64,000 nucleotides of DNA from the NCBI GenBank assembly GCA_036521195.1, contig DATDID010000009.1:1609-65608 (forward strand), in the 5' to 3' direction. This document shows positions 955 through 64,000 of the stretch, piece by piece. This DNA comes from Candidatus Dormiibacterota bacterium. GTDB lineage: Bacteria; Chloroflexota; Dormibacteria; Aeolococcales; Aeolococcaceae. Within the stretch, counting starts at the first letter, position 1, and the number at the start of each line of letters is the position of its first letter. A program made the translations under genes and the position numbers. The notes beneath the pieces were generated by a model. It had not been told where the DNA came from and ran no database searches. It was given only the letters and a program-made list of their open reading frames with translations.

Positions 955-2622
955 CTACCCGAGCAGCTCGCGCTGGAGCTGGTCGAGCGGCAGCGACCCC
1001 ATATGGAGCGCATCCATGTGGAATCGCTTCAGGTCGAACTCGGCACCGAGCCTTTCCCGGAGTAGAGCGCGGATGTCGAGCCACACACGCTCCCCAACTT
1101 TGTAGCTGATCGCCTGCGCCGGCATCCCGCAGTAGCGCTCGAGCTCGCTCAGCGCGAATCCCGGGCCCCCGAAGTAGCTGTAGCGCGTGACGAAGGGGAG
1201 GGCGACCTCCCAGTCCCAGACCTGTCCGGGTGCGTATTGCTCGCTTGCGGGGATCTCGAGCTGCAGGTGGAGCCCAATGTCGACGATGACCCGCATGGCG
1301 CGAAACGCGTGGGCGGCGAGCATCCCGAGCCGGTAGTCCGGGTTCTCCAGGTATCCGAGCTCGTCCATGAGCCGCTCGGCGTAAAGCGCCCACCCCTCAC
1401 CGTGGCCGGAGTAGAAGCCCAGCTCGCGCTGGAACCTGCTGAGCCGATCCTGGAAGGTCATGCAGAGCCCCACCTGCAGGTGGTGCCCGGGGACGCCCTC
1501 GTGGTAGGCGGTGCTCACCTCGGTCCAGAGTGGGAACCGGGTCCGGTCCCGGGCCGGATACCAGGTGCGTCCGGGCCTCGAGAAGTCCGCCGACGGCGCC
1601 GTGTAGTACATCGCCGCCGCGGTTCCCGGTGGTGCCTGGCGGCACTCGACCCGGCGGATCTGCTCGGGGATGTCGAAATGCACGCCGTCGAGCTCGTCGA
1701 TCGTCCTGTCGGTGAGGTTCTGGAGGAAACCGAGGAGCTCGTCGATGCTCTCGAGCCCGCGGGCGGGGTCCTCACGAAGCAGGGCGATGGCGCCGTCGAG
1801 CCCGAGCCCGGGGGCGATCAGGTCCGCGCTGCGGTCCATCTCTGCTTCGAGCCGGTGCAACTCCTCCCAGCCCCAGGCGTACACCTCGCGCAGGTCGCCG
1901 GTCAGGCCGAGAAAACGTCGCACACCGAGTGCGTACACCTCCTCGCCGGCTGCGTCCGATTCGCGAGCGTGCGGTGCGTAGTCGTCGCGTAAGAACTTCG
2001 CGAGCTCCGCATAGGCGGTTGTCGCAAGACGCGCGCCGCTCCGAAGGGCTTCTGCGTCGGCTCCGGCCTGCCCCCCTGCCTCCGCGAGCGCCTCGAAGTA
2101 CGCCCGTCCCGAGGCATGCTCGCCGCCGAGGGTTCCTGCCTGCGTGGCGCACACGAGTGCCTGCCGTCGCGGCGCGATCTGGCCCGTGGACAGGCCGTGC
2201 CGCAGCGATGCGGTGAATCCCCGGATTGCATCGGGCACGCGCGTCATGCGGGTCGCGATATGCGCCCAGTCCTCAGGCGTGGCGCGTGGAGCGCCGTCGA
2301 AGGCCGCGCGGATGAACGAGATGGGCGAGTCGAAGTTGGAGAGCTGCCGCCACGGATTGCCCGCTGCGTAGCCCTCCTGCATGACGTCGATCCGATCGGT
2401 CATCACCGCCGCGGCGATGCGATCGGCATCGTTCTCCGGCTGGGCCGCGTCGAGGGATCGCATCGTCGACCTCGCAAGGTCGAGTCGAGCATCGACACCG
2501 TCCGGCGAGTAGTCGGTGGCCTCGTCGTCGTGCCCCGGTTCGCCGATGGCCGTAGCAGTGAACGGATCGAGACGGCAGAGCGCCGAGACGTACGAATCGG
2601 CGATACGGAAGACCTGGGTCAC
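955..2622 (-). CDS. DUF885 family protein (metallopeptidase-like)
   Basis: 555-aa ORF containing AYHEGVPGHHLQ and WALYAERLMDELG, typical of DUF885 as I recall it. Codon usage is good. Confidence 0.8.
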   Translation of the reverse strand: MTQVFRIADSYVSALCRLDPFTATAIGEPGHDDEATDYSPDGVDARLDLARSTMRSLDAAQPENDADRIAAAVMTDRIDVMQEGYAAGNPWRQLSNFDSPISFIRAAFDGAPRATPEDWAHIATRMTRVPDAIRGFTASLRHGLSTGQIAPRRQALVCATQAGTLGGEHASGRAYFEALAEAGGQAGADAEALRSGARLATTAYAELAKFLRDDYAPHARESDAAGEEVYALGVRRFLGLTGDLREVYAWGWEELHRLEAEMDRSADLIAPGLGLDGAIALLREDPARGLESIDELLGFLQNLTDRTIDELDGVHFDIPEQIRRVECRQAPPGTAAAMYYTAPSADFSRPGRTWYPARDRTRFPLWTEVSTAYHEGVPGHHLQVGLCMTFQDRLSRFQRELGFYSGHGEGWALYAERLMDELGYLENPDYRLGMLAAHAFRAMRVIVDIGLHLQLEIPASEQYAPGQVWDWEVALPFVTRYSYFGGPGFALSELERYCGMPAQAISYKVGERVWLDIRALLRERLGAEFDLKRFHMDALHMGSLPLDQLQRELLG

Positions 2623-2632
2623 GTCCCCGACG

Positions 2633-5091
<2,459 letters not shown>

Positions 5092-5092
<1 letters not shown>

Positions 5093-6105
5093 TACTGAGC
5101 TCCAACCTCCACGGGGGTTCTCACCGCGCTCGCGATCACACCGCTGACGCCCTGGTCGGCCGCGCGAGCGGCAACACGGATCGCGTTCATCGTCGCCTCG
5201 GCGTCCGACCGCCCGTGCGCGATGACCACTTCACCTGCAACGCCGAGCAACAGCGCGCCGCCCGTCTTTCGGTAGTCGACACGATCGCGGAGCGGGCGGA
5301 GCTTCGGCTTGAGCAACGCTCCGCCGACTTTGCCGCCCATGGACTTGCGGGCTTCCCGGGCGATGCTCGAGAAGAGGAAATCGCCGATGCCCTCGGCAAC
5401 CTTGAGGACGACGTTACCGGTGAACCCGTCGGTCACCACGACATCGCATGCACCTCGGAAGACGTCCTTGCCCTCGACGTTGCCGACGAAGTTGATCGGC
5501 AGTGCCGCGATGAGCGGGTGCGCGGCCTGGACGAGCTCGGATCCCTTCTCGGCCTCCTCGCCATTGCTGAGCAGGGCGACTCGCGGGCGCTCGATGCCGA
5601 GCATGGTGCGAGCGTAGACGTCGCCCATCAGCGCGAACTGCGCCAACCACTCGGCCTTGCAGTCCGTGTTGGCACCGACGTCGAGCATGAACGTCTGACC
5701 CGACTCGCTCGGGAACGCTGCGCCAATGGCGGGTCGCGCGATGCCCGGGATGCGCTTGATGGTGAACAGTGCGGCTGCCAGCATCGCACCGCTGTTGCCC
5801 GCGCTCACCACTGCGCGAGCACTGCCGGCGGCCACCAGGGCGCAGCTGCTCACCAGTGAGGAGTCGCGCTTGGCGCGCACCGCGTTGGCGGGATGCTCGT
5901 TCATCTCGATGACGTCGCGTGCGTCGACGACGGTGATCGCACCCGACGATGCGCCCGCGCTCCGCAGCTCGGCTTCGACGGTTTCGCGCCGCCCCACCAG
6001 CGTGACCGAGATGCCGTGCTCGTTCACGGCGCGCAACGCACCTTGAACGATCGCTGCCGGGGCGTTGTCACCGCCCATCGCGTCAACCGCGATTGGGAGC
6101 GGCAT
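5092..6105 (-). CDS. plsX: phosphate acyltransferase PlsX
   Basis: The internal ATG at 6105 gives [16 protein letters not shown]... and a 337-aa protein, the normal PlsX length. The start overlaps the gyrB stop (TGATG) and the stop overlaps the gyrA start (TAATG). Confidence 0.9.
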
Positions 6106-8024
6106 CAGACGTCGAGGTTGCGCACGCTCGTCGCGTGGGTCTGGATGAAGCGCTTCCGCGGCTCGACGTCCGAGCCCATGAGACGGTCGAAGATGTCGTC
6201 GGCCTTGATGGCGTCGGCGACACCGACCTGGAGCAGCACGCGGCGCTCCGGATCCATCGTGGTCGCCCACAACTCCTCCGACATCATCTCGCCAAGTCCC
6301 TTGTACCGGGAGATCTCGGTGTCACGGCCCATCGTCTTCGCCTTGTCGTCGCGCTGGTCGTCGCTGAAGGCGTACTCGGTCTGCTTGTTGCGTCCCTTGC
6401 CCTTCTCGAGCTTGTACAGCGGCGGCTGCGCGAGGTAGAGATAGCCGCCATCGACGAGCGGGCGCAGGTGGCGCCAGAAGAACGTGAGCAGCAGCGTGCG
6501 GATGTGCGAGCCGTCGACGTCCGCGTCCGCCATGAGGACGATGCGGTGGTAACGGAGCTTGTCGACGCTGAACGTCTCGCCGAAGCCCCCGCCGAGCGCC
6601 ATGATCAGGTCCTTGATCTGCTCGTTGCCGAGGATCTTGTCCGCGCGTGCCTTCTCGACGTTGAGGATCTTGCCGCGCAACGGCAGGATGGCCTGGTTGC
6701 GGCGCTCGCGCGCCTCCTTGGCCGTACCACCTGCGGACAGTCCCTCGACGATGAAGATCTCGCAATGCGCGGGGTCGCGCTCGCTGCAGTCGACGAGCTT
6801 GCCGGGCAGCGTTGCCGACTCGAGCAATGACTTGCGTTGCACGAGGTCTCGCGCTTTCGCCGCCGCCTGGCGTGCGCGTGCAGCGGTGAGCGACTGGTCG
6901 ATGATCTTGCGACCTTCGCCCGGGTTCTCCTCGAGGTACTGCATCAGCGCGTCGCTCAGCACTGTCGAGACCTGGCCCGCGACCTCGCTGTTGCCCAGCT
7001 TGGTTTTGGTCTGACCCTCGAACTGTGGCTCGCGGAGCTTGACGCTGATCACCGCGGTGAGACCGTCGCGAACGTCATCGCCCGTGAGGTTGGGATCCTG
7101 TTCCTTCAGGATGGACGCTTTGCGCGCGTACTTGTTCAACGTCGCCGTCAGCGCGGTGCGGAACCCGGTGACGTGCGCGCCGCCCTCCTCGGTATGCACG
7201 TTGTTGGCAAACGCCAGCACGTGTTCCGTGAAGACGGTGTTCTGGTACTGGAGGGCGATCTCGACGACGTTGCCGTCGATCTCGCGCTCAACGTACATCG
7301 GCTTGAAGTTGATGACGTTGCGGTTGGCGTTCAGGTATCGAACGAAGGACTGAATCCCGCCCTCGAAATGGAACGTGTACGCGGCTGCGTCGCGCTCGTC
7401 GAAGAGCTGGATCGTGATGCCCTTGTTGAGGAACGCGTAGCTGCGCAGCGAGTTCTCCACGATGTCCCAGGAGAACTCGATCTCCGGGAAGATCTCTGGG
7501 TCCGGCCAGAACTGGACGAGCGTTCCGTGACGGTCCGACTTGCCGACAACGGCAACAGGGCCGTCGGGGACGCCCCGTGTGTACGTCTGCCGGTGGATCT
7601 CCCCGTCGAGATAGACCTCGACCAGCAGACGCTCACTCAGCGCGTTGACGACCGAGAGGCCGACGCCGTGCAGACCGCCTGAGACCTTGTACCCGCCGCC
7701 GCCGAATTTGCCTCCGGCGTGCAGCGTGGTGAGGACGACCTCGAGCGCGGACTTCCTGGCCGTGGGATGCATGCCCACGGGGATACCGCGACCGTTGTCC
7801 AGCACGGACACGGATTTGTCCGCGTGCAGCGTGACCTTGATGGTGTCGCACCAGCCGGCGAGCGCCTCGTCGATGCTGTTGTCGACAAGCTCGACGACAA
7901 GGTGGTGCAGACCACGCAGGTCGGTAGAGCCGATGTACATGCCAGGTCTGCGACGGACAGGCTCGAGACCTTCCAGGATCTGAATCTGGTCGGCCGAGTA
8001 CGTGCCTTTCGAGACCCGGCTGAT
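6105..8024 (-). CDS. gyrB: DNA gyrase subunit B (start codon unresolved)
   Basis: Motifs: HHLVVELVDNSIDEA, LHGVGLSVVNALS, Toprim EIFIVEGLSAGG, PLRGKILNVEKA and DADVDGSHI. The conserved YSADQIQILEGLEPVRRRPG is encoded upstream of the first ATG (7940). The 5' end is set provisionally at ATC 8024. Confidence 0.9.
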   Translation of the reverse strand: MSRVSKGTYSADQIQILEGLEPVRRRPGMYIGSTDLRGLHHLVVELVDNSIDEALAGWCDTIKVTLHADKSVSVLDNGRGIPVGMHPTARKSALEVVLTTLHAGGKFGGGGYKVSGGLHGVGLSVVNALSERLLVEVYLDGEIHRQTYTRGVPDGPVAVVGKSDRHGTLVQFWPDPEIFPEIEFSWDIVENSLRSYAFLNKGITIQLFDERDAAAYTFHFEGGIQSFVRYLNANRNVINFKPMYVEREIDGNVVEIALQYQNTVFTEHVLAFANNVHTEEGGAHVTGFRTALTATLNKYARKASILKEQDPNLTGDDVRDGLTAVISVKLREPQFEGQTKTKLGNSEVAGQVSTVLSDALMQYLEENPGEGRKIIDQSLTAARARQAAAKARDLVQRKSLLESATLPGKLVDCSERDPAHCEIFIVEGLSAGGTAKEARERRNQAILPLRGKILNVEKARADKILGNEQIKDLIMALGGGFGETFSVDKLRYHRIVLMADADVDGSHIRTLLLTFFWRHLRPLVDGGYLYLAQPPLYKLEKGKGRNKQTEYAFSDDQRDDKAKTMGRDTEISRYKGLGEMMSEELWATTMDPERRVLLQVGVADAIKADDIFDRLMGSDVEPRKRFIQTHATSVRNLDV

Positions 8025-8289
8025 GCCCTCAGGCGGAGGGTTCGAGCTGCCTCCGTTGGCGCTCGGCGTCGGTTCGACGGGCTCCTCGTGGGGCCGTTCG
8101 GGGCGTGCGATGTCGGTTATCGGTACTGCTCCGGTTGTGACGTGAGTGTTGGAGGTGAGGCCAAAGGTGAAACCGCTCGATTACTCAGCGCTGACTGCTC
8201 AAATCGGCCGTTCCAGATGCCTCTATTCTACCAGCCTGGAGGCCTACTTTGCTCTCCTCCGCGCGGTGCGCTGCACTAGCATCAGTACG

Positions 8290-57172: not shown

Positions 57173-58018
57173 TTACATCGAGGAACCGGACCGCCCGTCG
57201 ATGTAGACCGGATGCTCCGGCGGCTTGCCCTCGAGCCAGTAGGCGTCGAGACGCTCGTCCGTCCAGCCCCGCTCGCGCAGGAAGGGCTCGTCGAGAATCT
57301 GCTGCCCTGTCAGCGTGGGTGGCTCGGTTCCGACGATTTCCATCATCGCGTCGCAGAGGATCTCCGGCGACCGCCACTGGCTTCGGTCCCCAAGCCCCCA
57401 GTTGATGCTGGCCAGGCTCTCGATGATGGTCACCGGCCAGAGCGAGTTGCACGCGATCCCGTCGGACTCGACTTCCGCGGCGATTCCGATGGCCATCCGC
57501 GTCATGCCCATCTTGGTGGTCATGTAGGCGACGTGTCCCGGGCTCGGCGTGGTGCTGATGGGAGGGCTGCACATGATGATGTGGCCCCAGTGGCGCTCGA
57601 CCATGTGCGGCAGCGCGTAGTACGAGCACAGATACGCCGCGCGCACATTGATCTCCCACATCAGGTCGTAGCGTTTCGGAGGCGTGTCCAGCACCGGTTG
57701 CCACCACAGGGCACCGGCGTTGTTGACAAGGATGTCGAGACGCCCGAAGCGCTCGATCGTCGCGTCCACCATCGCTTTGACCTCGTCGTCGTGACGAACG
57801 TCGACGCGCACGGCGAGCGCGTTTCCTCCGGCGGCCTCGATCTCTGCCGCGACGGTGTGGATGCTGCCCGGAAGCTTGTCGGTCCCCGCCTCGGACTTGC
57901 CGGTGATGACGACCGATGCGCCTTCACTGGCAAGGCGAAGTGCCATCGCGCGACCGATGCCGCGGCTCGATCCGGTGACAACGGCGACGCGTTGCTCGAG
58001 TGGGCGAGAGGCACTCAT
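57173..58018 (-). CDS. SDR-family oxidoreductase
   Basis: VTGSSRGIGRA (TGxxxGxG), NNAG, and YMTTKMG (YxxxK). Confidence 0.88.
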   Translation of the reverse strand: MSASRPLEQRVAVVTGSSRGIGRAMALRLASEGASVVITGKSEAGTDKLPGSIHTVAAEIEAAGGNALAVRVDVRHDDEVKAMVDATIERFGRLDILVNNAGALWWQPVLDTPPKRYDLMWEINVRAAYLCSYYALPHMVERHWGHIIMCSPPISTTPSPGHVAYMTTKMGMTRMAIGIAAEVESDGIACNSLWPVTIIESLASINWGLGDRSQWRSPEILCDAMMEIVGTEPPTLTGQQILDEPFLRERGWTDERLDAYWLEGKPPEHPVYIDGRSGSSM

Positions 58019-58041
58019 CGGCGCGCATCATATGCGCCGCT

Positions 58042-58854
58042 ATGGGGAGAGACGTTGTGAAGTGGGTCGGCGCCCTCCTGGCCGTGGTCGGGACTGCCGC
58101 GTTTGTCTACGGGCTGATCGTGTTGATCTCTAACGGAAACTGCGGGTGCTCGGACGACGGGTTCTGCTCCGGTCCACCGTGCCCGCCGGCGGACAACCTC
58201 GGCTTCCTCGGGCTCTTCGCCGGGATCTGGGTCGCGATCGGCGGCATCATCATGATGAGTGCGGCCGCTTCCCGCGCCAGGGTGGCGAAGTGGCGAGCGC
58301 AATTCGCAGCAGGCACCAGCGCGTACACGGGCTCGCGGCTCGCGACGCCCGCCGGCACTCCAAGCGGCTTGACGTTCCAGTCGATGGGCGGCGCGTTCGG
58401 CGCAACGCCGGGAATGACCATGGCCCCCGGCATGAATCCGGCCATGTTCGACCCGAAAGCGATGAACGATCTAGCCCAGCAACTCCAGGCTGTCAGGCAG
58501 GCGAACAGCGGTAACCCGGAGGCGGCACGACAAGCAACGCTCGACGTCTTACGCGGCCACGGATATCAGATTCCGGCGAACGTTCCGCCGGGTCCGTTGG
58601 TCCTGCAGGCAGGGACGAGCCCGGTCGCCACCGCGAGCGGTCCCGGTTTTGCGCTCCCCAGCACACTTGGACCGGCGCCTGGTTCCGCTGAGGCGATCCT
58701 CGCCGCCGATGCGCAGGCCGGTGTCCCGACAGCACAGCCCGCGCAGGGTGACGCGACCGGTCGGCTCCAGGAGCTCGACGCGTTGAAGGCGCAGGGCGTT
58801 GTCAACGACGCGGAATACGCAGCGCAGCGCCAGCGGATCCTCGACTCGATCTGA
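58042..58854 (+). CDS. membrane protein with a C-terminal SHOCT domain
   Basis: Two TM helices around a Cys-rich loop (NGNCGCSDDGFCSGPPCPP), a low-complexity middle, and a C-terminus LQELDALKAQGVVNDAEYAAQRQRIL. Confidence 0.65.
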   Translation: MGRDVVKWVGALLAVVGTAAFVYGLIVLISNGNCGCSDDGFCSGPPCPPADNLGFLGLFAGIWVAIGGIIMMSAAASRARVAKWRAQFAAGTSAYTGSRLATPAGTPSGLTFQSMGGAFGATPGMTMAPGMNPAMFDPKAMNDLAQQLQAVRQANSGNPEAARQATLDVLRGHGYQIPANVPPGPLVLQAGTSPVATASGPGFALPSTLGPAPGSAEAILAADAQAGVPTAQPAQGDATGRLQELDALKAQGVVNDAEYAAQRQRILDSI

Positions 58855-58859
58855 TCCGC

Positions 58860-59465
58860 TCAGCGAACGAGTGCGGCGATGTCCTCGACGTTGCGGCCGA
58901 GCGCGTCGGTCAGCGGCCCCGGGAGCCGGCGCTGGAGGATCTCCGCGACGCTCGTGTAATACCAGAGCTGCTGCTTCGGATCAGTGACGGTGAAGCGCTG
59001 CCAGACCACGTCGCCCTCGGTGCGCAGATCCTCGAGAATCGCGCCCGAGTTGTGGACCTTGTCGCATGCCGAGACGAGCAGGACGTCCTCATCGGCGTCG
59101 TCGAGATGCTGGAGGTACTGTTCCTTGCGCTCGCGCCATCCGGGCTTGGGCTGCCCGGGAACCGCGATTGCGTCGCTGCACGCCATGACGATGCGTGCGA
59201 CCCGCTCGCCGAACTGATCCTCGATGACGCTGTGAGTCGCGGCCCCGTCGTTCGAGTCCTCGACAGTGTCGTGGAGGAGGGCGGCGATGGCGACATCCTC
59301 GTCGGCACCGTGCTCCAGCGCGAGCGCGGAGACCGACATGACGTGCGCCATGTAGGGGATACCGGTCTTCTTCCGGAACTGGTCCCCGTGGATGGCCCAG
59401 GCCAGCGCGAACGCCGTGGCGAAGCGGCGGGTCAGCGGTGGCGCGGTGGTATCGCGATCGGGCAC
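58860..59465 (-). CDS. RelA/SpoT-type HD hydrolase (small alarmone hydrolase-like)
   Basis: Contains AIHGDQFRKKTGIPYMAHVMSVS, AALLHDTVED, FGERVARIV and ACDKVHN. The GTG at 59465 is chosen as start; the ORF is open up to 59651. Confidence 0.75.
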   Translation of the reverse strand: MPDRDTTAPPLTRRFATAFALAWAIHGDQFRKKTGIPYMAHVMSVSALALEHGADEDVAIAALLHDTVEDSNDGAATHSVIEDQFGERVARIVMACSDAIAVPGQPKPGWRERKEQYLQHLDDADEDVLLVSACDKVHNSGAILEDLRTEGDVVWQRFTVTDPKQQLWYYTSVAEILQRRLPGPLTDALGRNVEDIAALVR

Positions 59466-59497
59466 GAGGACATTGTCCGTAATCGCCAGAATGACGC

Positions 59498-60007
59498 GTG
59501 CGCTTCTATCTGGGCCATCGACTTCCAGGAGGGTACTGGGCGGGATTCTCGACGTACGCGAGGCGTCCGCAACATGCGGCGCGACAGGCGGCCAGAGCGA
59601 CCGGAGGCATCGGCTGTGTCGGCTACATCGTGCTTGCGGTCGTGCTCGCATTGAGCATCGCGTATTGGTACATCAGCGTTCCTGTGCTGGTGCTGACGGC
59701 GATCGCCGTCGGTGTGACGGTGCATCGCCAGCACGTGCAGCGCGAGCGTCAGTCTGCCGCCGCCGCTCCGGCGGCGGTTGCGCCAGCGGCGTCCGTTTCG
59801 CCGGTGGTCGCCACGCCACACCAGCCGCTGCAGACACCGCAACGCAAACCGCCGCTGACCGTGCCGGCAGACACATTCAAGGTCGGATCGCTCGTGCACC
59901 TTGAGAAGGACGGGACTCGTGCGACGTACTTCGTCGACCACGGTCGCACCCCTGACGAGATTGTCCTGAAACGCGTGACCAGCACCCCGACGGCGCCCGA
60001 TGCCTGA
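59498..60007 (+). CDS. hypothetical two-TM membrane protein with a small C-terminal soluble domain
   Basis: TM pair GYIVLAVVLALSIAYWYISVPVLVLTAIAVGV, an Ala/Pro linker, and the end FKVGSLVHLEKDGTRATYFVDHGRTPDEIVLKRV. The 3' end overlaps the next start by 8 nt (ATGCCTGA). The start is uncertain (59498 or GTG 59630). Confidence 0.5.
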   Translation: MRFYLGHRLPGGYWAGFSTYARRPQHAARQAARATGGIGCVGYIVLAVVLALSIAYWYISVPVLVLTAIAVGVTVHRQHVQRERQSAAAAPAAVAPAASVSPVVATPHQPLQTPQRKPPLTVPADTFKVGSLVHLEKDGTRATYFVDHGRTPDEIVLKRVTSTPTAPDA

Positions 60008-62438
60008 CACCGCGCTGCTCAGCCTCGTCGTCGATCGGATCGACGCGCATCCCCCGGCGGCCGGGGCTGCGGACCTGATTCTTGCCGCATTCCAGGGCGC
60101 TGCGTCGGTTGATGCGACGCTCCGCGGCGACGGGGGCTCGACGTTGGCGTCCGCCGCCCACATCGCCGCAACCGCAACGCCCGCGGCCGTGTACATCACC
60201 GCGATCGAGGTCGAGGGCTTCCGGGGTATCGGGCCGCCGTCGACGCTGCAGATCGACCCGGGACCGGGCCTGACGCTGGTCGTCGGCCGCAACGGCTCCG
60301 GGAAGTCGTCGTTCTCCGAAGCGCTCGAGATGGTGTTGCTGGGCACCAACCAGCGCTGGGAGCAGCGCGTCAAGGTGTGGCGCGACGGGTGGCAGAACCT
60401 CCATCACCGGCATACGCGCGTGGCCGCGCGCTTCACCATCGACGGGCGCAAGCAGCCGCTGGACGTCGCCAGGGTCTGGAAGGATAGCGATGGCGTCGAT
60501 GGTTCGACGCTGACCGTCGATGGCAAGACAGCGTCTCCTGATGTGCTCGGGTGGACGCAGCAGCTCGCGGGCTATCCCCCACTGCTGTCGCACAACGAGC
60601 TCGAGCACGCACTCGACCGTGAGCAGTCGAAGCTGTATGACGCGCTCGCCGGCATCCTGGGTCTCGGCGATCTCGCCATGGCGCAGCAGGTCTTGCAGAA
60701 GGCACGCCTGGATCGCGAGCGCGATGTCAAGGCTGCGCGCGAGGCTTTGCCGCAACTGCGTGCGCTGCTCGAGCGGACGACCGACGAGCGCGCCGAGCTG
60801 GTGCGAGCCGCGCTCGCATCGAAAACGTGGGACCTCGACGTCGTCGCAGGGACAGTCGGCGGTGATGCGCAGAGTGATGAAACCATCGTGTTGCGCAAGC
60901 TTCGTGATCTTGCGGGGCTCCCGGTCCTCGACCGCGAGCGACTCACTATCGCGGTCACCGAGTTGCGCGATGCACAGGCCGCCGCCGAGCGTTTGCGGAG
61001 CACCGACGCGGGGCGGGCGCACGAGACGGCATCGCTGTTGCAGCAGGCGCTTGATATGCACGCGCATGCGGAGGGCGAGCGCTGTCCCGTCTGCGGCACC
61101 GAAGGCGTGTTGACCTATCAGTGGCGCATACAGGCGCGCGATCAGGTAGCGGCGCTCCGCGCCGACGCGGAAGCAGTGCGTACCGCGCACAACATGCTCG
61201 ACAACGCAATGCGGCAGGGGCGCCAGCTCGTGACCGCTCCCTTGCGGACGCTCCGCGATGGCGCTGGTGCGGGTATCGACATAGCCCCGGTGGTCGATGC
61301 CTGGGAACGGTGGTCGAGCGTGTCCGCCGACGATGACGCCCTTGCGCTGGCGAGTCATCTCGAGACGCACGGACCGCCGCTGATCGCAGCCGTCGGCGAT
61401 CTTCGGCGGGCTGCCGCAGCCGAGCTCGAACGGTTGGAGCGAGCATGGCGGCCCGCTGCGGACGCGATTGCATTGTGGCTACCGCTCGGACGCCGTGCGC
61501 AGGCAGCCGAGCAGGAGGTCGCGCGCCTCAAGGACGCCGAACGGTGGTTGAAGGAGGCACACGACGAGTTGCGCGACGAGCGCTTTCGTCCGATTGCCGG
61601 TGCGGTGCAGGAGAACTGGACGCAACTTCGTCAGGACAGCAACGTCTCGCTCGGCGATCTGCGCCTGCTTGGTGCGCAGACGCAGCGCCGTCTGTCGCTC
61701 GACGTCAAGGTCGATGGAGAGCACGGATCCGCGCTCGGGGTCATGAGCCAGGGCGAGCTGAACTGCCTTGCGCTCTCACTGTTCCTGCCGCGAGCGTCGA
61801 TGCCCGAGTCGCCGTTCCGCTTCGTCGTCATCGACGACCCGGTGCAGGCGATGGATCCCGCCAAGGTTGCGGGGCTCGCGCAGGTGCTCGCCCGCGCAGC
61901 AAAGGAGCGCCAGGTGATCGTCCTCACGCATGACACACGTCTGGCAGATGCGATGAGCGCGCTCGACATTGCCGCGACAGTTGTCGAAGTGGTGCGGCGT
62001 GAGCAGTCCGTCGTTGAGTTGCGCCGGATCCAGGATCCTGTGCAGCGCTACATCAAGGACGCGTTCGCCGTTGCCAACAGCGGCGACCTGCCCCCAGAGG
62101 CGCTCCGCGTTGTTCCGGGCTTCTGCAGGCTCGCGCTTGAGGCGGCGTCGTCACTCGCCGCCACGCGCTACATGCTGCATCAGGGCAAGTCCTATAGTGA
62201 GGTCGAGTACGCGCTGCAGAAGCCGACGACGCTGAACATGTGGCTGGCGCTCGCGTTGTTGCATGACGCCGATCGTGCCGGCGATGTCTCCGGATACCTG
62301 TTCAAAAACCACCCGTCGGCGGTGGATGCCGTCAAGGAGTGCAACCGCGGGACACACAGTGGGAAGGTGTACGGCGACATGCGCCAGTTCATCCGCAGCG
62401 TCGAGCAGCTCACGTTGAAGATGCTCGAGGCGCGCTGA
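60000..62438 (+). CDS. SMC/Rad50-like ABC-type ATPase with a coiled-coil insert, central CxxC and a helical C-terminal extension
   Basis: Walker A GRNGSGKSS, a long A/L/R/E-rich helical insert with CPVC at 61083-61094, signature-like MSQGELN, Walker B FRFVVIDDP, and H-loop VLTHD. 812 aa. Confidence 0.8.
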   Translation: MPDTALLSLVVDRIDAHPPAAGAADLILAAFQGAASVDATLRGDGGSTLASAAHIAATATPAAVYITAIEVEGFRGIGPPSTLQIDPGPGLTLVVGRNGSGKSSFSEALEMVLLGTNQRWEQRVKVWRDGWQNLHHRHTRVAARFTIDGRKQPLDVARVWKDSDGVDGSTLTVDGKTASPDVLGWTQQLAGYPPLLSHNELEHALDREQSKLYDALAGILGLGDLAMAQQVLQKARLDRERDVKAAREALPQLRALLERTTDERAELVRAALASKTWDLDVVAGTVGGDAQSDETIVLRKLRDLAGLPVLDRERLTIAVTELRDAQAAAERLRSTDAGRAHETASLLQQALDMHAHAEGERCPVCGTEGVLTYQWRIQARDQVAALRADAEAVRTAHNMLDNAMRQGRQLVTAPLRTLRDGAGAGIDIAPVVDAWERWSSVSADDDALALASHLETHGPPLIAAVGDLRRAAAAELERLERAWRPAADAIALWLPLGRRAQAAEQEVARLKDAERWLKEAHDELRDERFRPIAGAVQENWTQLRQDSNVSLGDLRLLGAQTQRRLSLDVKVDGEHGSALGVMSQGELNCLALSLFLPRASMPESPFRFVVIDDPVQAMDPAKVAGLAQVLARAAKERQVIVLTHDTRLADAMSALDIAATVVEVVRREQSVVELRRIQDPVQRYIKDAFAVANSGDLPPEALRVVPGFCRLALEAASSLAATRYMLHQGKSYSEVEYALQKPTTLNMWLALALLHDADRAGDVSGYLFKNHPSAVDAVKECNRGTHSGKVYGDMRQFIRSVEQLTLKMLEAR

Positions 62439-62833
62439 TGGCCGGCGCATCGTCGGTGGACGCGCATACGCTCGTGTCCACGGCGCGCGACCTCATCCGG
62501 GACGACGACGCGACCACCGCGGGGCTTTGGCCTCGCGCGGCGGCGCTGCTTGCTCGCCAGGGGCTTGAGCTTGCAATGGAGCGGCTGTGGCAGGTCACCG
62601 CGCCGGGACTGGAGCGCACGCCGACGAAGTGCCAGTTGCTCTGCGTCGGCGACATGCTCAACGACCGCACGCTCGGCGGCCGCGCGATGCTCACGTGGAA
62701 CTCGTTGTCCAGCGCCTGCCATCACCGCGTGTACGAGTTGCCGCCGACGGCGTCGGAGTTGAACCTGGCGCTCGAGACGGTCTGGGATCTTGCAGAGGCG
62801 GTGGAGCGTTTGCGGGGCAAGATAAAGGCCTGA
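62438..62833 (+). CDS. hypothetical small helical protein coupled to the ATPase
   Basis: The ATG overlaps the ATPase stop (TGATG). The 131-aa all-helical-looking sequence (LLARQGLELAMERLW...LSSACHHRVYE...LAEAVERLRGK) has good GC3. Confidence 0.6.
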   Translation: MAGASSVDAHTLVSTARDLIRDDDATTAGLWPRAAALLARQGLELAMERLWQVTAPGLERTPTKCQLLCVGDMLNDRTLGGRAMLTWNSLSSACHHRVYELPPTASELNLALETVWDLAEAVERLRGKIKA

Positions 62834-62851: not shown

Positions 62852-63136
62852 TTACGCGGCGTGCAGGGCGGCGCTCAGGACCGAGGGATCGATGACAGCC
62901 GGCTGTTGGGCGGGAATCGTCACCACCACCGTTTCACCCCGCGCCATCACGTGGCGGGGCCGAACCAGGGTTATGCCGACAATATTTCCGGCGGAATCTA
63001 GTCGAAGCGCATGACCTTCCGGCGACTCGTCGAAGGCGACCGCGGTTTTCGGATCACCGACGTGGAGGTACAGTACGTCTCCCTCCGGGTCGTACAGAAC
63101 GTTGTCGAAGGTGATTCCGGCGATCGTTGTTGTCAT
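62852..63136 (-). CDS. DUF2283 domain protein (putative antitoxin-like partner)
   Basis: MTTTIAGITFDNVLYDPEGDVLYLHVGD...GNIVGITLV matches the DUF2283 pattern. ATGA overlap with the upstream gene. Confidence 0.75.
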   Translation of the reverse strand: MTTTIAGITFDNVLYDPEGDVLYLHVGDPKTAVAFDESPEGHALRLDSAGNIVGITLVRPRHVMARGETVVVTIPAQQPAVIDPSVLSAALHAA

Positions 63137-63483
63137 GGCATTGCTCTTCTTGGGAACGCTGTGATGATCAGGCCAACATCACCTGAATAGACTACGACAA
63201 CCTTTATCCAGGCGCTTGGTCCGCCAGGGAGGTAGAACCAAGCCTCACCATCCGATTTTGTGCGCTGGACGGCGGGCGCATGGATGGCTCGCATCACGAG
63301 GTGCGGCTGCTGACGTAGTTCTGGATGGCGGGAGGCAATGTGATCCCATCTGCCGAGCGTGAGGCTGACGCGGCGCCGCTGGGGGTCTGTGGTGACCGCG
63401 ATGATTCGTCTCTGATGCACGGGTTGGGCAACTCTCCTGGACAAAGCGCTCGAGATCAGCGGCATCACCTCCGGCTGGAACAT
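63133..63483 (-). CDS. small toxin-like protein (W-x-HI-x-x-RHPE type) upstream of DUF2283
   Basis: LTLGRWDHIASRHPELRQQPHLVMRAI...AWFYLPGG...IKVVVVY...IITAFP resembles small nuclease-like toxins commonly paired with DUF2283. The start is uncertain (63483, 63465 or 63576). Confidence 0.55.
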   Translation of the reverse strand: MFQPEVMPLISSALSRRVAQPVHQRRIIAVTTDPQRRRVSLTLGRWDHIASRHPELRQQPHLVMRAIHAPAVQRTKSDGEAWFYLPGGPSAWIKVVVVYSGDVGLIITAFPRRAMP

Positions 63484-63621
63484 GCCGATCACCGTCGCCG
63501 TTCTCCAGGGACATCGAACGGTCAATCCGAGTTCTGGAATCCCGCGACAGCCATGTGTCGCGGGAGCACTCGACACTCAGCCCTGGAGATCCGTGGCGGG
63601 GTAGCGAAGTGAGGAAAAGCG

Positions 63622-64000
63622 ATGCTCAGGAAGGTGGAACCCATCACCCTCGGCTGCGACGTGCGCATCGAGGGCGACAACATCGCCGTCACGGGTCTCT
63701 CTCTGCACGACGCCGATCTGGCGTCATATGTGAGCCAGCACCCGGAGGTTGATCGGCCGGCTGTGGTGGAGCGCGGACTGAAGGTTGGGTTGATTGCCTT
63801 GCGCAATGCGAGCGTGACGATCAACGTCGACTTCGTCGCGCGAGAGTTCGACCGGCTCATGCACCGTACCGATGAGTCGCACCATCGGGCGGCGATCGCG
63901 CTCGACGCCGCGCTGCGTGAAACCTTCGCGGCGAAGGACGGAACGCTGCCGCGCACGCTCGAGCAATTCCTCGGCAAGGACGGAACGCTGCGCAGGCTCG
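63622..64000 (+). CDS. hypothetical protein, 3' end beyond the window
   Basis: ATG 63622 follows GAGGAAAAG. The frame is open to the window end (MLRKVEPITLGCDVRIEGDNIAVTGLSLHDADLASYV...). It is not in the ORF track because it has no stop in the window. High GC3. Confidence 0.6.
   Translation, partial: MLRKVEPITLGCDVRIEGDNIAVTGLSLHDADLASYVSQHPEVDRPAVVERGLKVGLIALRNASVTINVDFVAREFDRLMHRTDESHHRAAIALDAALRETFAAKDGTLPRTLEQFLGKDGTLRRL

Follow-up and report, generated by a model that had tools for sequence, protein, structure and literature searches.

Within a 64,000-nucleotide (nt) stretch of DNA from a Candidatus Dormiibacterota bacterium (contig DATDID010000009.1, positions 1,609 to 65,608), hereafter the window, we find a two-gene module in which a coiled-coil ATP-binding cassette (ABC) ATPase is encoded directly upstream of a small helical protein. 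These two genes are the conserved unit, and the pair is probably a conflict or stress system that cuts RNA. Our preferred reading, to which we give about an even chance, is that the ATPase is an RloC-like sensor coupled to a heterodimeric HEPN RNase, the pair serving as a switch in defence or in the response to DNA damage. The window is high-GC DNA whose nearest relatives are Candidatus Dormibacterota metagenome-assembled genomes; its counterpart in the European Nucleotide Archive (ENA) is contig ERZ25039548:contig_81435. The features of the pair are as follows.

60000..62438, forward strand: coiled-coil ABC ATPase gene (Rad50/LmuB-like), 812 amino acids (aa)
60285..60308, forward strand: Walker A motif GRNGSGKS, residues 96-103, with K102 at 60303-60305
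61083..61097, forward strand: zinc-hook motif CPVCG (C362, P363, C365), of which CPVC occupies 61083-61094
61743..61934, forward strand: C-terminal half of the ABC head, with signature, Walker B and H-loop
62013..62435, forward strand: C-terminal helical domain of the ATPase, residues 672-812, HEPN-like (AF2 model and profile alignment)
62127-62129, forward strand: R710 of the C-terminal domain, invariant
62139-62141, forward strand: E714 of the C-terminal domain, at least 90% conserved
62355-62357, forward strand: H786 of the C-terminal domain, invariant
62438..62833, forward strand: gene for the small free-standing protein of predicted HEPN fold, obligate partner, 131 aa counted from ATG
62555-62557, forward strand: R40 of the small protein, invariant
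62567-62569, forward strand: E44 of the small protein, invariant
62720-62722, forward strand: H95 of the small protein, invariant

A search with a profile of the small protein placed its gene directly downstream of the ATPase gene in 77 of 83 loci from at least six phyla, and in several of the remaining six the ATPase match reaches the contig end. The 131-aa gene is therefore co-conserved with the ATPase, as a first-pass annotation of the window had supposed. In the window the two genes overlap by 1 nt (TGATG at 62436-62440). Carriers, counted by scanning one genome per GTDB species, amount to at least 578 species representatives, and include Dormibacterota, Acidobacteriota, Actinomycetota (Streptomyces, Pseudonocardia, Blastococcus and Planosporangium among them), Gemmatimonadota, Chloroflexota, and some Proteobacteria and Myxococcota. 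The ATPase family comprises 928 clusters (50% identity, E<=1e-30); the best 150 of these are mostly about 780-850 aa in length and mostly matched over nearly their full extent. Small-protein clusters number at least 1808 at 90% identity, and those listed are unnamed and carry no Pfam domains. Clustering of neighbouring open reading frames (ORFs) found no further recurrent partner beyond the Dormibacterota clade. Long ORFs at four loci (L045, L058, L059 and L073; loci are numbered with the prefix L) resemble fusions of the ATPase with the small protein, but seem to arise from reading-frame artefacts in high-GC DNA, and none was confirmed; at L045 the fused-looking ORF and the ATPase match start in different frames.

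The first-pass annotation had described a unit of three genes, chained by overlaps of 8 nt and 1 nt, the first encoding a protein with two transmembrane (TM) segments. The three forward ORFs and both overlaps are confirmed from the sequence. As a conserved unit the trio does not hold, for the linkage of the two-TM gene to the ATPase is confined to a single Dormibacterota clade (15-17 loci for this gene and a neighbouring HD hydrolase gene). Because the two-TM and HD genes are linked to the module only within that clade, we regard the pair as the core and the trio as a lineage-specific elaboration.

At the N-terminus of the ATPase is a variable extension of about 65 aa; the head that follows is split by a helical insert of about 330 aa, which bears the hook, and a helical domain closes the C-terminus. 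The split ABC head and the CPVC hook, seen already on first reading, lie at or near the positions then given; the Walker A motif is likewise present, although at 60285-60308, slightly upstream of the location "near 60315" first assigned to it. Across 26 diverse homologues, GRNGSGKS is invariant, as are the hook residues C362, P363 and C365, which are sited inside the helical insert. The C-terminal half of the head supplies the signature MSQGELN at 61743, the Walker B motif FRFVVIDDP at 61815, and the H-loop VLTHD at 61920, with H644. The full ABC motif set of RloC and PrrC (GRNGSGKS, MSQGELN, VVIDDP, THD) is thus present and conserved. In the Walker B motif, the pair D612-D613 places Asp at the usual position of the catalytic Glu, a replacement that suggests a slow, switch-like ATPase.

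Pfam models SMC_N (7.8e-19), AAA_21 and AAA_23 recognize the ATPase, and Rad50_zn_hook matches it weakly (E 0.028). In PADLOC v2, which we used for the system-level comparison, its top matches are the defence ATPases mad3 (2.7e-23, head only), LmuB (model PDLC03859, 1.6e-22, residues 213-653, reaching into the coiled coil), HEC-01A and PDC-S06; PADLOC PrrC reaches only 6.7e-4 and is confined to the head. Pfam model PF13166 (AAA_13), which we take to be the PrrC/RloC family model, aligns its positions 496-573 of 713 to residues 578-648 and scores 30.9 bits, under its gathering score of 36. Orthology to SbcC, Rad50, RecN, RecF or SMC was considered and rejected: NCBIfam equivalog models score 15-30 bits against cut-offs of 172-1000, and for the two general NCBIfam Rad50 models the scores are 24 bits (cut-off 700) and about 20 bits (cut-off 847). 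With every equivalog score so far under its cut-off, the protein is not an SbcC/RecN/RecF-type orthologue, in line with the first-pass annotation.

In a set of 51 diverse small-protein sequences, 31-84% identical to the window copy, R40, E44 and H95 are the sole invariant residues, arranged as R-x3-E-x50-H. The AF2 model of the small protein, built from the shallower alignment A1, is a five-helix bundle with a predicted local distance difference test (pLDDT) score of 88.9. Its top Foldseek match, 3mfn, is unannotated (template modelling score, TM-score, 0.67), and HEPN structures match at TM-scores of 0.62 (7bxo, HepT), 0.60 (4nqf), 0.60 (2hsb), 0.55 (2q00), 0.49 (1wol) and 0.46 (3o10). The model is confident, and by fold the small protein is probably a HEPN-type helical bundle.

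The C-terminal domain of the ATPase carries a corresponding triad, R710-x3-E714-x71-H786. Its AF2 model has seven helices (pLDDT 89.6), and many of its weak Foldseek matches are HEPN toxins. In both AF2 models R-x3-E occupies the same place on the second helix, a long one (positions 39/43 in one, 40/44 in the other), and the conserved His closes the penultimate helix. Near that His only R-x2-H is found; its Arg is conserved to at least 90% in the fused domain and varies in the small protein.

A resemblance between these two modules had been noticed by eye, and the 131-aa protein proposed as a paralogue of the C-terminal extension. BLASTP did not detect the relationship (E 5.7), nor did hhalign with shallow alignments (probability 1.2%). 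With diverse profiles of 79 and about 75 sequences, hhalign aligned 117 columns at E 8.8e-5, with the R, E and H residues in register. The score of 25.2 exceeds those of all controls: reversed alignments gave 11.1-12.6, and 150 column shuffles gave a maximum of 12.7 (mean 2.6, standard deviation 2.1). The proposal is thereby supported, and we take the fused C-terminal domain and the small protein to be paralogues. Pfam scans over every member of both module alignments gave nothing consistent, PADLOC searches with the C-terminal domain alone and with the small protein gave no match at E<=10, NCBIfam matched neither, and no viral model was a significant Foldseek match.

The known system with the closest architecture is RloC, an ABC ATPase with a coiled-coil insert bearing a CXXC zinc hook and a C-terminal anticodon nuclease whose catalytic motif is Arg-X3-Glu-X36-52-His, with residues R692, E696 and H737 in GkaRloC (PMC2610378). 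The RloC nuclease is governed by the ATPase, DNA and the hook, and is turned on through DNA-dependent ATPase activity or by hook mutations (PMC3458546, PMC3874168), and in vivo by inducers of double-strand breaks (PMC2610378, PMC3458546, PMC3874168). RloC has spread laterally and at times adjoins restriction systems (PMC2610378, PMC3458546), and the PrrC and RloC nuclease domains are classed as divergent HEPN domains (PMC3710099). Judged by that published description, our ATPase resembles RloC in its length of about 800 aa, its split ABC head, the CXXC hook on its helical insert, and conserved Arg-X3-Glu and His residues of the C-terminal domain at nearly the same positions (R692/E696/H737 against R710/E714/H786), with 71 residues between Glu and His here. 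The x50 spacing of the small protein falls inside the RloC range of 36-52. Like RloC, the pair is laterally spread and sometimes adjoins restriction genes. The ATPase differs in that its C-terminal domain has no detectable sequence similarity to that of RloC, in that PF13166 stays under its gathering score, and in having a second, obligate gene encoding a free-standing nuclease-like module (77 of 83 loci), whereas RloC is a single self-contained gene.

HEPN domains form dimers in which both protomers give residues to the active cleft. We infer RNase activity, heterodimer formation, a DNA trigger and a defence role for the pair, which might work as follows. The hook-linked ATPase would sense DNA that is abnormal or foreign, for instance ends, breaks or intermediates of replication; ATP binding and hydrolysis, by moving the heads, would then alter the pairing of the C-terminal domain with the small protein; a metal-independent HEPN RNase, with tRNA as its probable target, would be switched on; and translation would halt, giving either abortive defence or a DNA-damage checkpoint.

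Several observations weigh against the reading of the pair as an RloC-like sensor with a HEPN RNase. The spacing of 71 in the fused domain lies outside the 36-52 of RloC, and the canonical HEPN motif Rx4-6H is absent from both modules. Foldseek E-values for the small protein are 0.04-0.5, though with probabilities up to 1.0; for the C-terminal domain the matches are weak, the best at E 0.17 and those to HEPN toxins at TM-scores of 0.27-0.41. Neither module could be linked by profile to Pfam HEPN families, to the C-terminal part of PF13166 or to PDB chains; the HEPN assignment is by fold only. As for a role in defence, tblastn against phage genomes found no copy, and flanking genes in other phyla are a mix of defence-like and ordinary metabolic genes, many of them metabolic. 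In the Dormibacterota clade, moreover, the locus sits in synteny among housekeeping genes and evolves as its neighbours do, a behaviour not typical of defence genes.

That the two modules are related, as the controlled profile comparison supports, also suits the main variant of the RloC-like model, a toxin-antitoxin-like one that we consider unlikely. There the C-terminal domain alone would be the nuclease, forming a homodimer when the heads engage, and the small paralogue would cap it as a decoy until the sensor fires. Translational coupling and strict co-occurrence would suit a stoichiometric inhibitor, and HEPN toxins are commonly restrained by a bound partner (PMC3710099). A pure decoy, however, would have no need of the full set of three putative catalytic residues, and in the small protein it is these alone, R40, E44 and H95, that are invariant. 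The one locus with an intact small gene beside a truncated ATPase (L087, below) is neutral toward this variant. Comparison with HepT of the HEPN-MNT toxin-antitoxin systems shows a likeness in predicted fold (superposition at a TM-score of about 0.6), but the small protein has no Rx4-6H, no MNT partner and no sequence-profile match. The HEPN system of mycobacteriophage Butters gp57r was dismissed for its unrelated architecture.

The sequence affinity of the ATPase to LmuB raises the alternative of a Lamassu-type layout, in which the ATPase would be LmuB, the small protein an LmuC-like non-enzymatic middle component, and the effector would be elsewhere or absent. LmuB is one of the two best defence-ATPase matches, with part of the coiled coil included in the alignment, and the two share a short coiled coil and a replaced Walker B catalytic residue. 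The published account of LmuB gives its hook as "CPxCG or similar", a form that CPVCG fits, describes an E-to-Q change in Walker B as general, and puts the protein at about 650 aa (PMC10586767). The present ATPase has DD rather than D-Q at Walker B, and its 812 aa include an extra C-terminal domain, expected to be lacking from a protein of LmuB's length; a putative effector is fused to its C-terminus and duplicated downstream. No neighbouring protein matched the LmuA effector, and no recurrent third gene was seen, in any locus examined. The small protein matches neither the LmuC nor the LmuA model of PADLOC, its gene lies downstream of the ATPase and not in the middle, and its predicted HEPN-type fold and invariant triad speak against a non-enzymatic role. 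We accordingly give this layout only a slim chance.

The claim that the module is far from known kinds is not supported. Its architecture is that of RloC and its sequence is nearest to Lamassu LmuB; neither module, on the other hand, has a PADLOC model. The C-terminal domain, the small protein and the two-TM protein are all unmatched in PADLOC, and there is no system-level match, so that no named PADLOC system is recognized, as first proposed. We view the pair as a variant of the ABC-ATPase-plus-HEPN theme of RloC and PrrC and of the Lamassu-sensor theme, not as categorically new, and it may already have been described under another name.

Gene contexts outside the Dormibacterota clade include mobile and defence-type settings, which favour the reading of the pair as an RloC-like switch. 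On the Streptomyces plasmid pM92 (NZ_CP101138.1, 81820-84695) the pair lies beside genes for NB-ARC/TPR and DUF6119 proteins, a kinase and a large AAA ATPase. In eight loci, six of them from Streptomyces species, the ATPase has upstream of it a GmrSD type IV restriction gene, which in Streptomyces loci adjoins it directly; Pfam and PADLOC gave this assignment on six of the proteins. At one JGI metagenome locus AddAB-like genes precede the pair, the end of which is overlapped by a type IV restriction gene of the PLD-helicase-DUF3427 kind; L032 has a PLD-ResIII-DUF3427-type restriction gene nearby, and another locus an AbiEii toxin-antitoxin pair and a transposase. In L087 (8088-9399) the intact small gene adjoins a 289-aa ATPase remnant (profile positions 508-748) within a toxin-antitoxin-rich island with HicAB, DUF433, Uma2 and HNH genes; the copy of the module in L087 is decaying. 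As a whole the module is patchily distributed and mobile, with a flavour of defence, and a strict defence-island signature is not seen.

Within the Dormibacterota clade the picture is one of stability. Gene order upstream is PEPCK, aminotransferase, FUR, Zincin_2, adh_short and HD_4, and continues through the two-TM gene, the ATPase, the small gene and a variable stretch to Cpn60. Between clade genomes the ATPase is 65-82% identical, the small protein 75-88%, and Zincin_2 56-79%, and the clade copies are all intact. Since the ATPase and small protein diverge about as their neighbours do, in shared synteny, the module is old and vertically inherited there and is not a recent island. The accessory-like context suggested in the first-pass annotation is thus contradicted: the neighbourhood, from Zincin_2 and adh_short to Cpn60, is a syntenic housekeeping one, and the module diverges at its neighbours' pace.

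Such constancy invites an explanation of the pair as a housekeeping factor for DNA repair or chromosome maintenance in Dormibacterota, a lineage-specific analogue of Rad50 or RecN with the small protein as accessory subunit. Synteny from adh_short/HD_4 to Cpn60 is stable across genomes with ATPases 65-100% identical, divergence is like that of neighbours such as Zincin_2, and no clade copy is damaged. Against it stand the patchiness across phyla, the plasmid copies, the adjoining restriction and toxin-antitoxin genes together with the one decayed copy, and NCBIfam RecF, RecN, SMC and Rad50 scores far under their cut-offs. SbcCD and Rad50-Mre11 share with the pair a coiled-coil ABC ATPase with a zinc hook, but the ATPase here has a far shorter coiled coil and an additional C-terminal domain, and no nuclease partner of the Mre11/SbcD type accompanies it. 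A check of the neighbours found no adjoining SbcD/Mre11, kleisin, LmuA or Toprim gene, in agreement with the original reading of the locus. We therefore think a housekeeping repair factor quite improbable.

Two further genes lie upstream of the pair in the window.

59498..60007, forward strand: two-TM protein gene, 169 aa, GTG start
58860..59651, reverse strand: SpoT-type HD hydrolase (HD_4), maximal ORF, Pfam HD_4 5.9e-20

In the two-TM protein a single hydrophobic segment, some 45 residues long (approximately residues 31-77), fits a two-helix hairpin, and family searches with the protein in Pfam, PADLOC and NCBIfam gave no match. Its N-terminus, MRFYLGHRLPGG..., is conserved in relatives, and we therefore place the gene start at 59498. 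The end of the gene overlaps the ATPase gene by 8 nt (ATGCCTGA at 60000-60007). It occurs in 15 of the 83 loci, all of them from close Dormibacterota relatives whose ATPases are at least 65% identical. The HD_4 gene occurs in 17 of the 83, the same 15 and two in other phyla, where it is 3-5.5 kb away. The two-TM protein is a lineage-specific accessory outside the conserved core, dispensable for the family at large, and its linkage to the HD hydrolase cannot be separated from plain synteny. In L003 and L013 (6857-7949) the two-TM gene is convergent with the HD gene and overlaps its 3' end, and the HD gene lies between the two-TM gene and the ATPase; adjacency of the two-TM and HD genes is kept there and coupling of the two-TM gene to the ATPase is lost. 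Searches around the operon for a LexA-type box (GAAC-N4-GTTC), a sigma-70 promoter and a terminator found nothing above chance.

The divergent HD gene starts 18-60 bp from the two-TM gene start in relatives; in the window its true start is probably near 59490, at a position not exactly fixable from the sequence. In L001, the ENA counterpart, the gene caller cuts the HD hydrolase to 145 aa, and the N-terminal MAQIEAH... is in frame in L002 and out of frame in the window; the 5' end of the gene may contain a frameshift or sequencing error. Small indels distinguish the window from L001: coordinates are offset by 50005 at the start of the locus and by 49999 at the ATPase. Three genes of L002, for PEPCK (1605-3165), Zincin_2 (4757-5859) and the two-TM protein (7252-8031), are each split across frames, and look like products of long-read indel errors rather than real pseudogenes. 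Between adh_short and the HD gene the window has an Ala/Gly/Pro-rich ORF at 58000-58854 on the forward strand (284 aa maximal, 266 aa by the gene caller) with a faint Pfam SHOCT match, which is not at that position in L002 or L003.

Downstream of the small gene, a DUF2283 protein of 94 aa (62852-63136, reverse strand) and an overlapping protein of 147 aa (63133-63576, reverse strand) form a toxin-antitoxin-like pair, which looks like an insertion specific to the window genome. It separates the small gene from a gene for a 423-aa protein without family match, at 63622-64000 on the forward strand, which runs off the end of the window; in relatives the gap between these two genes is about 92 nt in L003, with a median of roughly 170 nt. 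The 423-aa gene is downstream of the module in nine Dormibacterota-clade loci and directly upstream of it in L014, and it may belong to the operon as another lineage-specific member. A YbjN-like gene follows it in L001 and L003, the two loci checked (in L001, 13623-15574 holds the 423-aa gene and then a YbjN/TY-Chap3-like gene). Farther along the contig, beyond the window, is an ADP-ribosylglycohydrolase gene. About 4.4 kb past the small gene in L001 (17220-20341) is a type IV methyl-directed restriction enzyme of the PLD-ResIII-DUF3427 kind (PADLOC mREase_IV, 1e-186); its coding sequence is broken into two ORFs, suggestive of a frameshift or an assembly error.

The module is chromosomally fixed in the Dormibacterota clade and has there gained the coupled two-TM gene upstream. 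A more specific history, which we hold only tentatively and regard as less likely than the RloC-like switch itself, is that the pair is a widespread, so far undescribed immune or stress module in which a Lamassu-related zinc-hook ATPase captured a HEPN-type nuclease domain and needs its duplicated free-standing copy to make up a heterodimeric RNase, and that the Dormibacterota module was domesticated as a fixed checkpoint from DNA damage to translation, connected to a membrane protein and located next to a (p)ppGpp-type hydrolase.

If the reading of the pair as an RloC-like ATPase with a heterodimeric HEPN RNase is true, a large family has been invisible to Pfam and PADLOC v2, one that occurs in no fewer than 578 species representatives and whose small proteins form at least 1800 clusters at 90% identity. 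It would join Lamassu-type, SMC-like sensors with tRNA nucleases of the RloC/PrrC type, in a design described for neither theme, a fused nuclease-like domain with an obligate paralogous partner. It would also be a tractable test case for the gating of a HEPN dimer by a Rad50-like sensor. The lasting fixation of the module at a single site of the Dormibacterota chromosome is unusual for a defence gene, and prompts one to ask whether modules of this kind can turn into housekeeping stress checkpoints.

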